Origin: Clostridiales bacterium
Lineage (GTDB): Bacteria; Bacillota; Clostridia; Lachnospirales; CAMVHY01
Length of the DNA: 63,267 bases
Direction of reading: 5' to 3'
NCBI GenBank assembly: GCA_031265515.1
Contig: JAISCN010000047.1
Location: 1-63,267 of the forward strand
Part shown: piece by piece, positions 61,642-62,667 of the stretch
Numbering within the stretch: the stretch's first letter is position 1
Layout: each line of letters starts with the position of its first letter
Position numbers and translations under genes: made by a program
Notes under the pieces: model-generated
The model's database searches: none
Seen by the model: the letters and a program-made list of their open reading frames with translations, nothing else
Told to the model about the DNA's origin: nothing

Positions 61642-62667
61642 TTAATCTTGATTTGGAGTAAGTAACGTAGTTTTTTTCGGAAATTTCAAAAATTTTATGA
61701 TAACAGCAGCTATTAATAGACATGCTAGGATAGGCGAAAGATTTTTCAATAATTCGATTCCCAAAGTTATTTTTTCAAATCCGCCGTTTGATAAAATTAA
61801 CCCGATAGTTGCACCTAATCCAGCCAAAATTAACAAAGCAGAAGCAATTTTAGCACTTCGAGGTATTTTTTCTTGCGGCGAAGAATTTTCTTGTGGATCA
61901 CATGATTTTATTAATTGTCCAGTTTCTTGATGTTGATCTGGTTTACTTTCATTTGTTGATATTGGATTTTTTCTTATTAATCGTTTTCGCTTTTTGGGTT
62001 GTTGTGTTTCTATATGTGATAACTCTACTACTTGCAATTTATTCAATAATGTTGGAGGAATCAATCCTAATACTTCTTGAAGACAACTGCTGTTATTTAG
62101 AGAATTCAGGGTAGAAATTACCTGAGATGGAGTTAACAAAACTTCTCTTGGTAATCCTGATGGTGTTGCTGTTTCAATTCCAAAATAAAATTTTAATAGC
62201 CTCGCATATTTATCATTAATATGTTTTCCGCCATATCCTAAAATAATTTCATCCCATATTTTTCTTCCCCTTACTTCACAAAAATTATCAAAAATCTTCA
62301 TGATGTTTTGCATTAATGATTGATTATCTGGATTTTGCAAAAAAAATTGAGTCCTGTTAGTATCTGTGAAAGTGTAAGTAAAAATTAAATAAGACATTGA
62401 TAAAATCATAAAAAAAATATCGAATAGCTCTGCGTATTGATCGTTTACTGAATACATTGTACTTAATTTTGAGTTTGGTTTCATAGCAACATTATAAAGT
62501 GCTAGAAAATTGTCACCTAAATTAAATTTCCCAGGACAACCACCAGCTTGCATTGAACAAAACATACGTAAATCGTCTTTTGGTAAACTTGTGAAGTATT
62601 TAATAATTTCAAACCGCGCACTTCGATCAACACCAACTACTAGATCTAATTTACTGATTTCGCTCAC
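61642..62667 (-). CDS. Orphan 341-aa protein: N-terminal globular part, basic PKKRKR patch, Q/P/S-rich linker and a C-terminal two-helix hydrophobic hairpin
   Basis: The GTG start has AGGAG 8 nt upstream. 'QQPKKRKRLIRK' lies at aa 222-233 (verified at DNA level, 61981-62004). Hydrophobic helices lie at aa ~272-296 and ~309-327. There is no signal peptide. The 62101-62160 sample is 37% GC. Confidence 0.75.
   Translation of the reverse strand: MSEISKLDLVVGVDRSARFEIIKYFTSLPKDDLRMFCSMQAGGCPGKFNLGDNFLALYNVAMKPNSKLSTMYSVNDQYAELFDIFFMILSMSYLIFTYTFTDTNRTQFFLQNPDNQSLMQNIMKIFDNFCEVRGRKIWDEIILGYGGKHINDKYARLLKFYFGIETATPSGLPREVLLTPSQVISTLNSLNNSSCLQEVLGLIPPTLLNKLQVVELSHIETQQPKKRKRLIRKNPISTNESKPDQHQETGQLIKSCDPQENSSPQEKIPRSAKIASALLILAGLGATIGLILSNGGFEKITLGIELLKNLSPILACLLIAAVIIKFLKFPKKTTLLTPNQD

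Follow-up and report, generated by a model that had tools for sequence, protein, structure and literature searches.

A predicted C-terminal two-helix hairpin in an orphan protein from a low-GC Clostridia contig and the recurrence of its architecture in related gut bacteria

We describe a gene coding for a protein of 341 amino acids, referred to here as p341, at positions 61642..62667 (minus strand) of contig JAISCN010000047.1, which belongs to a metagenome-assembled genome (MAG) named 'Clostridiales bacterium'. The whole contig, 63,267 bp long, has been analyzed, and we call it the window. p341 is probably a lineage-specific protein of the bacterium's own cytoplasmic membrane, held there by a two-helix hairpin at its C-terminal end, with both ends inside (N-in/C-in) and the head in the cytoplasm. 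From the N-terminal end, the general plan consists of a large head, which lacks a signal peptide, then a linker of low complexity, a bilobed hydrophobic domain of 44–62 residues and a charged tail. It is found again in a second protein of the window and in several proteins from the nearest low-GC relatives, and it looks like a lineage trait. The explanation which we favour for this wider picture is that p341 belongs to a set of fast-evolving, mutually dissimilar proteins which share only this plan, in a lineage of low-GC gut Clostridia.

The open reading frame (ORF) is a real gene. It starts with GTG, ends with a TAA codon (61642..61644) and is preceded by a ribosome-binding site, AGGAG (62676..62680, minus strand), read from the sequence 8 nt 5' of the start. 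Its GC content at the three codon positions (GC1/GC2/GC3 = 0.39/0.35/0.19) resembles that of the housekeeping genes of the contig. With the annotated genes of the contig as training set, the log-likelihood of its codon usage is -3.80 in frame, as compared with -4.03 to -4.84 in the five other frames. We accept it as a gene because an ORF of 341 codons in DNA with about 26% GC is accompanied by a ribosome-binding site and by a native codon usage specific to its frame. It is annotated as hypothetical protein LBJ93_03290 (MDR1150619.1), and it is also present on the Logan assembly of run SRR14710922. A scan for promoters and terminators around the gene gave results which did not exceed those of shuffled sequences in this AT-rich DNA.

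The protein can be divided in several parts, all of them encoded on the minus strand, with hydrophobic segments called by a simple Kyte-Doolittle scan. The head (residues 1-221, 62005..62667) has no signal peptide and no family match, and it is predicted as mostly helical with very low confidence. The highest hydropathy of any 15 residues among the first 40 is 0.62, and the scan finds no hydrophobic segment within residues 1-75. An aromatic-rich hydrophobic stretch, LFDIFFMILSMSYLIFTYT (residues 81-99, 62371..62427), is borderline, with a Kyte-Doolittle mean of 1.64, and is probably a buried helix. The head is followed by QQPKKRKRLIRK (residues 222-233, 61969..62004), which includes the polybasic patch PKKRKRLIRK (residues 224-233, 61969..61998), with K or R at seven of its ten positions. 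Then comes a linker rich in P, S, Q, E and N (residues 234-271, 61855..61968), predicted as coil; its residues 234-270 (n=37) include five each of P, S and Q, together with four E and three N.

The hairpin itself spans approximately 61687..61854. Its first helix, AKIASALLILAGLGATIGLILS (residues 272-293, 61789..61854), is predicted both by hydropathy and by the approximate free energy of insertion (dG). The Kyte-Doolittle call covers residues 274-292, with a mean of 2.38. A span of 19 residues has an approximate dG of -1.7 kcal/mol, and the best window of 12–17 residues reaches -2.1. This helix contains a small-xxx-small motif, GLGATIG. The 16-residue loop, NGGFEKITLGIELLKN (residues 294-309, 61741..61788), is predicted to face outward. 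It is without net positive charge: residues 294-305 carry +1/-2, and the 16 residues together have two K and two E, which cancel out. The second helix, LSPILACLLIAAVIIKFL (residues 310-327, 61687..61740), has a short hydrophobic core. Its Kyte-Doolittle call covers residues 306-324 (mean 2.27), and its approximate dG is -4.2 in the best 12-residue window and +0.2 to +2.0 in windows of 18–19 residues. A basic tail of 14 residues, KFPKKTTLLTPNQD (residues 328-341, 61645..61686), with 3-4 K and one D, completes the protein. A preliminary description of this DNA had reported a head of about 220 residues, a basic patch, a linker, two helices, a short loop, a 14-residue tail and the lack of a signal peptide, and we find all of them in place; the hydrophobic stretch at residues 81-99 is our addition to that list.

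Two lines of evidence place this hairpin in the membrane of the bacterium. The first is the distribution of charges: there are three K/R residues in the N-terminal flank, no net positive charge in the loop and 3-4 K in the tail. These charges fit the positive-inside rule, which argues for an N-in/C-in hairpin. The hairpin proteins of related genomes, described below, likewise tend to have basic residues flanking the hairpin on both sides. The second line of evidence is hydrophobicity. In the best windows of 12–17 residues the two helices reach -2.1 and -4.2, as compared with -2.9 to -6.1 in bona fide membrane proteins of the window; the best windows of ten soluble proteins of the window range from -0.4 to +4.1. 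Substrates of the signal recognition particle (SRP) show a peak of apparent dG near -2.0 kcal/mol, while transmembrane effectors secreted by type III/IVB systems have values between -1.5 and +0.5 in windows of 12–17 residues and so avoid insertion in the bacterial membrane (Krampen et al., PMC6110835). By this yardstick, and on our simplified scale, the insertion machinery of the bacterium itself should therefore take up the hairpin. FtsY is encoded within the window. The preliminary description had suggested, as its second choice, that the hairpin fixes the protein in the membrane of the bacterium while the head stays in the cytoplasm; the flank charges and the hydrophobicity lead us to prefer it.

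From these data we infer a topology, a route of insertion, what the basic patch may do and how the head might function. The two C-terminal helices would insert as a helical hairpin. The basic flank next to the membrane and the basic tail would remain in the cytoplasm, and the 16-residue loop, which is uncharged to acidic, would point to the cell wall. Insertion would be late or post-translational, because the anchor is found at the extreme C-terminal end, and it may proceed via SRP/FtsY plus YidC/SecYEG, the route by which bacteria handle proteins with a C-terminal anchor. The head of about 220 residues, the KKRKRLIRK patch and the flexible linker of about 40 residues would all be on the cytoplasmic face. 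Most plausibly, the polybasic patch would bind the anionic head groups of phospholipids (or nucleic acid) and would reinforce the topology in this way. The head might be a tethered module for interaction or regulation.

Proteins of a comparable type are known. Bacterial proteins without signal peptide and with a C-terminal transmembrane anchor have been documented in Streptomyces coelicolor (PMC3087755) and in Escherichia coli, where DjlC and Flk are examples (PMC6794478). As in these proteins, p341 has no signal sequence, a large and presumably cytoplasmic N-terminal part and an anchor at the extreme C-terminal end, which seems hydrophobic enough for SRP/YidC-type targeting. They are the closest functional analogy, with p341 as a variant. 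The classical type of tail anchor is one transmembrane helix, located about 30–50 residues or less from the C-terminal end and followed by an exoplasmic tail which is very short. p341 lacks this arrangement and has instead a predicted two-helix hairpin, which would return the C-terminus to the cytoplasm. The protein has no sequence relationship to the C-terminally anchored proteins, and its insertion may resemble theirs.

Several points weigh against this placement. Helix 2 is marginal as a 19-residue span, so p341 might have a single span with the tail outside, or helix 2 might be re-entrant. The stretch at residues 81-99 surpasses in hydrophobicity every segment of the ten soluble proteins tested and could be a third membrane segment. 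The head has no fold assignment, and AlphaFold2 without an alignment gives predicted local distance difference test (pLDDT) values of 37-38, both for full p341 and for the head alone. The dG values are approximate, as they were calculated with a Hessa scale in a simplified form which ignores position, and the helix calls come from a hydropathy scan. Finally, our view is limited to 63 kb of the genome, and a specialised export system may be encoded elsewhere.

The first two of these points are the basis for a different topology, in which residues 81-99 would form a third membrane segment, or helix 2 would not span the membrane, and either region 100-271 or the tail would be outside the cell. 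We consider it rather unlikely. The best 13-residue window of the stretch (84-96) has an approximate dG of -1.7, beyond the best window of the ten soluble proteins, and helix 2 is marginal over 18–19 residues as well. Nevertheless, the full 19 residues of the stretch have an approximate dG of +2.6, and helices rich in F, I and Y are frequent in the proteins of this AT-rich genome. Besides, three segments would put KKRKRLIRK and the tail with its four lysines outside, against the positive-inside rule.

The second protein of the window with this plan is a PPP-like metallophosphoesterase of 1009 amino acids (p1009; coding sequence 3509..6538, minus strand), which we have used as a comparator. Its C-terminal hairpin (3566..3742, minus strand) has hydrophobic segments at residues 934-957 and 975-993. 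The match to the Metallophos family is weak (E=5e-5, 24.2 bits, with a cutoff of 21.5); the motifs GDVHG, GDFLHEG and GNHE, read from the sequence, are of the PPP-like metallophosphoesterase type. p341 and p1009 are the only ones, among the 33 ORFs of at least 200 amino acids in the window, which present a head, a linker, a hairpin and a tail in this order. The preliminary description had claimed that they share an architecture without sequence similarity, and this is what we find: BLASTP gives no meaningful similarity between them. Homology of the two hairpins is unproven, since their Smith-Waterman score of 40 is reached by 97 of 2000 shuffles (p about 0.05, which is optimistic for transmembrane sequences). 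p1009 has no homolog in a search of 5.8 billion clusters, and no significant match to PDB sequences, even including its phosphatase head. About 400 of its residues form imperfect repeats rich in A, E, L and Q, with periods of 18, 72, 87 and 186 in the DNA. Its GC content is 37% in a contig with 26% GC, yet its GC3 is 0.16, and for this reason we attribute the high value to amino acid composition and not to a foreign origin.

Further ORFs which end in a hairpin have been found in four loci of related genomes (L005, L084, L086 and L088). L005 contains a protein of 1459 amino acids near gyrA (13855..18234). Immediately 3' of dacA, proteins of 1559 and 397 amino acids are found in L086 (11461..16140) and L088 (11432..12625), respectively. 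L088 has two more, a protein of 596 amino acids (1874..3664) and another of 660 (4274..6256) with a longer tail, which fails our fixed rule. No Pfam family is above threshold for any of these five proteins, and BLASTP among the seven hairpin proteins, or among their heads, gives nothing at E<1. A possible relationship between the heads of p341 and of the 397-residue protein was rejected: the alignment score equals the mean of shuffled sequences.

We have counted this architecture by a fixed rule, with transmembrane segments called by a simple hydropathy scan, in ORFs of at least 200 amino acids. It is found in 2/33 ORFs of the window and in 5/85 of the nearest low-GC relatives; these five are four of the proteins just described plus a 286-residue ORF in L084, the 660-residue protein of L088 being left out. 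Only 1/647 is found in all the other Clostridia loci we have fetched, and 0/96 in those other loci with GC below 34%. Fisher tests give p=0.007 for the window against all other loci, p=1e-4 for the relatives against all other loci and p=0.014 for window and relatives together against other loci with GC below 34%; these values apply to a rule tuned after the examples had been seen, and to control loci which are mostly gyrA neighbourhoods, rich in core genes. It had been proposed that p341 and p1009 belong to one functional class of membrane-inserted, host-facing proteins. As an architecture, such a class is supported by these counts; its host-facing nature is not.

In three cases (the window, L086 and L088) an orphan with a hairpin is found 3' of dacA. 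The genes of L086 and L088 have the same direction as dacA, and p341 is convergent with it. They are absent from this position in L082, L083, L084, L089 and L090, that is, in five of the seven relatives which are readable there; L087, whose contig ends just past dacA, was left out of the comparison. These genes could be a fast-evolving positional ortholog without detectable sequence similarity, or their position could be a coincidence: The arrangement is suggestive only.

We should also note an orphan of 646 amino acids in L086 (4608..6548, plus strand), 5' of ileS-dacA, which has a faint match to PI3/PI4 kinases (E=0.001, 19.5 bits, below the cutoff). The match covers DRNxGN...GIDQD, which resembles the catalytic loop of a kinase. 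The matching position of L088 is occupied by the hairpin-anchored orphans of 596 and 660 amino acids.

Homology searches give very little for p341. No Pfam family is found, even at E<=10 with both halves queried. There is no match in NCBIfam, PHROGs or PDB sequences, and the PADLOC defence profiles give nothing at E<=0.1. A word search in 5.8 billion clusters returns only the protein itself. An exhaustive phmmer search of 1.84 billion representatives adds a single spurious match, P0002, which we have rejected as a relative: It is a repeat protein which matches a short CxxxAGGCPG motif. GTDB genomes, JGI metagenomes, phages and plasmids have no match either. As a control, the adjacent DacA (60423..61592) has a best non-self match with 61–63% identity, and the best genome match for the GyrA of the contig has 63% identity. 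To judge from these values, the source lineage is one without any close sequenced relative. The orphan status of p341 is to be expected for a protein which is not an enzyme and says little about its novelty, because the lineage itself is unsampled, as the DacA control indicates.

A low probability is given to the proposal that p341 is a membrane-disrupting module. Its head would then be a sensor or regulator, and its hairpin, with small-residue motifs of the GxxxG type, would oligomerise and permeabilise a membrane, as in abortive-infection effectors with two transmembrane helices, holin-like proteins and membrane-depolarising toxins. Class II holins are proteins of about 65–95 amino acids, with two transmembrane helices, which are found in phage lysis cassettes. 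They share with p341, as do the two-helix abortive-infection effectors, the two helices, the predicted N-in/C-in topology and the basic C-terminal tail. Small-xxx-small motifs are present in helix 1 of both p341 (GLGATIG) and p1009 (GVSVGILAG), and the heads are highly variable, which is to be expected of arms-race genes. On the other hand, such motifs are common in ordinary helix packing. With 341 amino acids, including an N-terminal extension of 270 residues, p341 is far above the size of a holin. It has no PADLOC or PHROG profile match and no phage or plasmid similarity, and its neighbours are housekeeping genes (dacA and feoAB), with neither a defence island nor a prophage.

It is quite improbable that p341 is a young or decaying gene without a maintained function, such as a recently arisen or strain-specific ORF. 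No homolog is found in any search, in five of the seven readable relatives no positional ortholog accompanies the closest homologs of DacA, and the window shows some signs of decay, namely a truncated AddB and a transposase fragment. But a frame of 341 codons in 26% GC DNA, with a ribosome-binding site, a GC3 typical of the contig and a codon signal both strong and specific to its frame, does not suggest decay. Several relatives have kept proteins of this architecture, and in a poorly sampled lineage (DacA identity of at most 63%) the absence of homologs carries little weight. The preliminary description had counted the absence of orthologs among the grounds for abandoning its own proposal. 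Formally, none exists in any of our searches, but this is uninformative for an unsampled lineage.

The remaining proposals depend on the nature of the organism. Its contig contains many housekeeping genes (gyrA, dnaK-grpE, prfA, murA, ftsY, mnmG, pgi, clpC, obg, ssb and rpsF) and genes for envelope and transport functions (comEC, mreC, two D-Ala-D-Ala carboxypeptidase genes and feoAB). It also has a sporulation operon, coding for a STAS protein (best match SpoIIAA), for SpoIIAB (an equivalog match of 194 bits, with a cutoff of 135) and for a sigma factor which best matches SigF/SigG. Other genes code for a SpoVT-like regulator and for a protein whose peptidoglycan-binding repeats are of the SleB type. 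Judging by its gene content, the organism is an endospore-forming Firmicute, since the contig contains a spoIIAA-spoIIAB-sigF operon and spoVT. The closest relatives by GyrA are uncultured Clostridia MAGs from gut metagenomes, with 29-30% GC, one of them from a mouse gut catalogue. Within the window we see neither a specialised secretion system nor any sign of an intracellular lifestyle.

The preliminary description gave first place to a membrane-inserted protein facing a host and pointed to effectors of the Inc type. In the form in which we have considered this proposal, p341 would be exported, its hairpin would be found in the membrane of a host or protist and its head in the host cytosol, while PKKRKR would act as a nuclear localisation signal (NLS), possibly after cleavage. 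Inc proteins, which are secreted by the type III system and occur only in Chlamydiae, have a bilobal domain of two transmembrane helices of 15–32 residues with a loop of fewer than 30 (PMC3048545). The p341 hairpin, with helices of about 20 and 18 residues and a loop of 16, agrees with this definition. Other likenesses are an anchor shared with little or no sequence similarity, helix-rich soluble parts and an enrichment in one host-associated lineage (PMC3048545, PMC3290821). One member of the class has a PPP-like phosphatase head, the neighbouring orphan in L086 has the faint PI3/PI4-kinase-like motif (E=0.001, below the cutoff), and PKKRKR resembles an NLS of the SV40 type.

In spite of these likenesses, we consider this proposal highly improbable and have dropped it. 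Inc proteins have an N-terminal secretion signal, belong to obligate intracellular Chlamydiae and usually have the hairpin near the N-terminus. p341, on the contrary, has a C-terminal and more hydrophobic hairpin, without any recognised N-terminal export signal, and no similarity to IncA or any other Pfam family. Its sporulation genes and the Clostridia relatives of its GyrA place the organism outside the Chlamydiae. Type III/IVB secretion systems are Gram-negative systems, and one of type III is very unlikely in this spore-forming Firmicute; no gene for such machinery is found in the window. There is no obvious erosion of the genome, and gut metagenomes are the source of the MAGs nearest to it. 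On our simplified scale, the dG values of the hairpin (-2.1 and -4.2) are in the range of SRP-targeted proteins and outside the range of -1.5 to +0.5 of secreted effectors (PMC6110835). As to the literature, we have found the phrase 'bilobed hydrophobic domain' only in papers on Chlamydiae.

The nuclear localisation idea has been examined separately. The monopartite NLS of SV40 large T is of the PKKKRKV type, and p341 resembles it in having a proline followed by five K/R residues (PKKRKR). The consensus K-K/R-x-K/R is present as KKRK and KRKR (residues 225-229). A run of five such as KKRKR appears in 0.4% of p341 shuffles; over the 37 window proteins about 0.6 basic runs of five residues are expected by chance, and one is observed. 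However, lysine is 9.5% of the window proteome, and K[KR]x[KR] is found in 23/37 window proteins (62%), while 18 are expected by shuffling. Because this motif does not discriminate among window proteins, the case for an NLS is weak, and nuclear import is unlikely to be the role of the patch. It also differs from a classical NLS in that the protein is bacterial, from a lysine-rich proteome, and has a membrane anchor at a distance of 40 residues. A polybasic stretch in a membrane-tethered bacterial protein would more simply be a binder of lipid or nucleic acid, or a determinant of topology, which are the usual roles of such stretches. Clusters of K and R are found N-terminal to the hairpin in several of the proteins of relatives, such as EKKRKAE and HKKRN in L005 and KNKKHS in L086, and are absent in others.

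The least probable of all the proposals is that this uncultured, low-GC gut lineage has an Inc-like repertoire, a large set of rapidly diverging orphans which have only the C-terminal hairpin in common, some of them with eukaryote-like heads (a PPP phosphatase, perhaps a PI-kinase). Their target would be a membrane of another organism, such as host epithelium or a gut protist, or a specialised one at the interface between forespore and mother cell, with PKKRKR of p341 as a host-targeting signal; if true, no earlier case in a Gram-positive spore former would precede it.

By itself, p341 is one more hypothetical membrane protein, ordinary for a bacterium with so little sampling, and we advise against retaining the NLS/Inc reading. 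A modestly interesting lead, and the one worth keeping, is that its architecture recurs in an unsampled lineage of gut Clostridia: unrelated orphans of 341 to about 1560 residues have the same hairpin ending, about 40 times more frequently than in other Clostridia loci. If this applies to whole genomes, it would be a lineage-specific means of tethering diverse cytoplasmic or exported modules to the membrane, and the architecture would provide a simple search rule for further proteins of this type in gut metagenomes.

Several other features of the contig should be mentioned. Its first 754 positions (1..754, 5' of gyrA) are very AT-rich, with no ORF of at least 100 amino acids on either strand, and Rfam gives no family at gathering score for them. 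Near the middle of the contig (32693..34348) there is evidence of gene decay. A 390-residue AddB-like ORF, which matches just part of the N-terminal domain of AddB, is accompanied by a 120-residue fragment of a PD-(D/E)XK family transposase, and no long ORF is found in the flanks over some 0.8-1.4 kb.

An orphan of 899 amino acids (54890..57589, plus strand) has no Pfam match; by eye it contains repeated helical units, ARM/HEAT-like, with a recurring 'ILGNLxxC..LV.S..F' motif. Three ORFs adjoin the phosphatase gene, with 770 (7106..9418, plus strand), 262 (9770..10558, minus strand) and 191 amino acids (10884..11459, plus strand). They have no match in Pfam, NCBIfam, PADLOC or PHROG, except for a weak PHROG match (E=0.014) of the 191-residue ORF. 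Large genes specific to the lineage are thus unusually frequent in this contig.

Two genes have features of variable surface proteins. The divergent neighbour of p341 (62866..63267, plus strand) begins with MVYKQRSSRERERER, followed by a hydrophobic signal-anchor, and is truncated by the end of the contig; its 134 available residues have no Pfam match. Within its first 15 codons there is an (AG/CT) microsatellite with about 10-11 units (approximately 62886..62909), which is the classic layout for phase variation by slipped-strand mispairing in a surface protein. The other gene (16119..17999, minus strand) codes for a protein of 626 amino acids with a Listeria-Bacteroides repeat domain. It contains 2.7 copies of a 198-bp tandem repeat (16899..17441, 73% matches), and its product is probably a variable surface protein.

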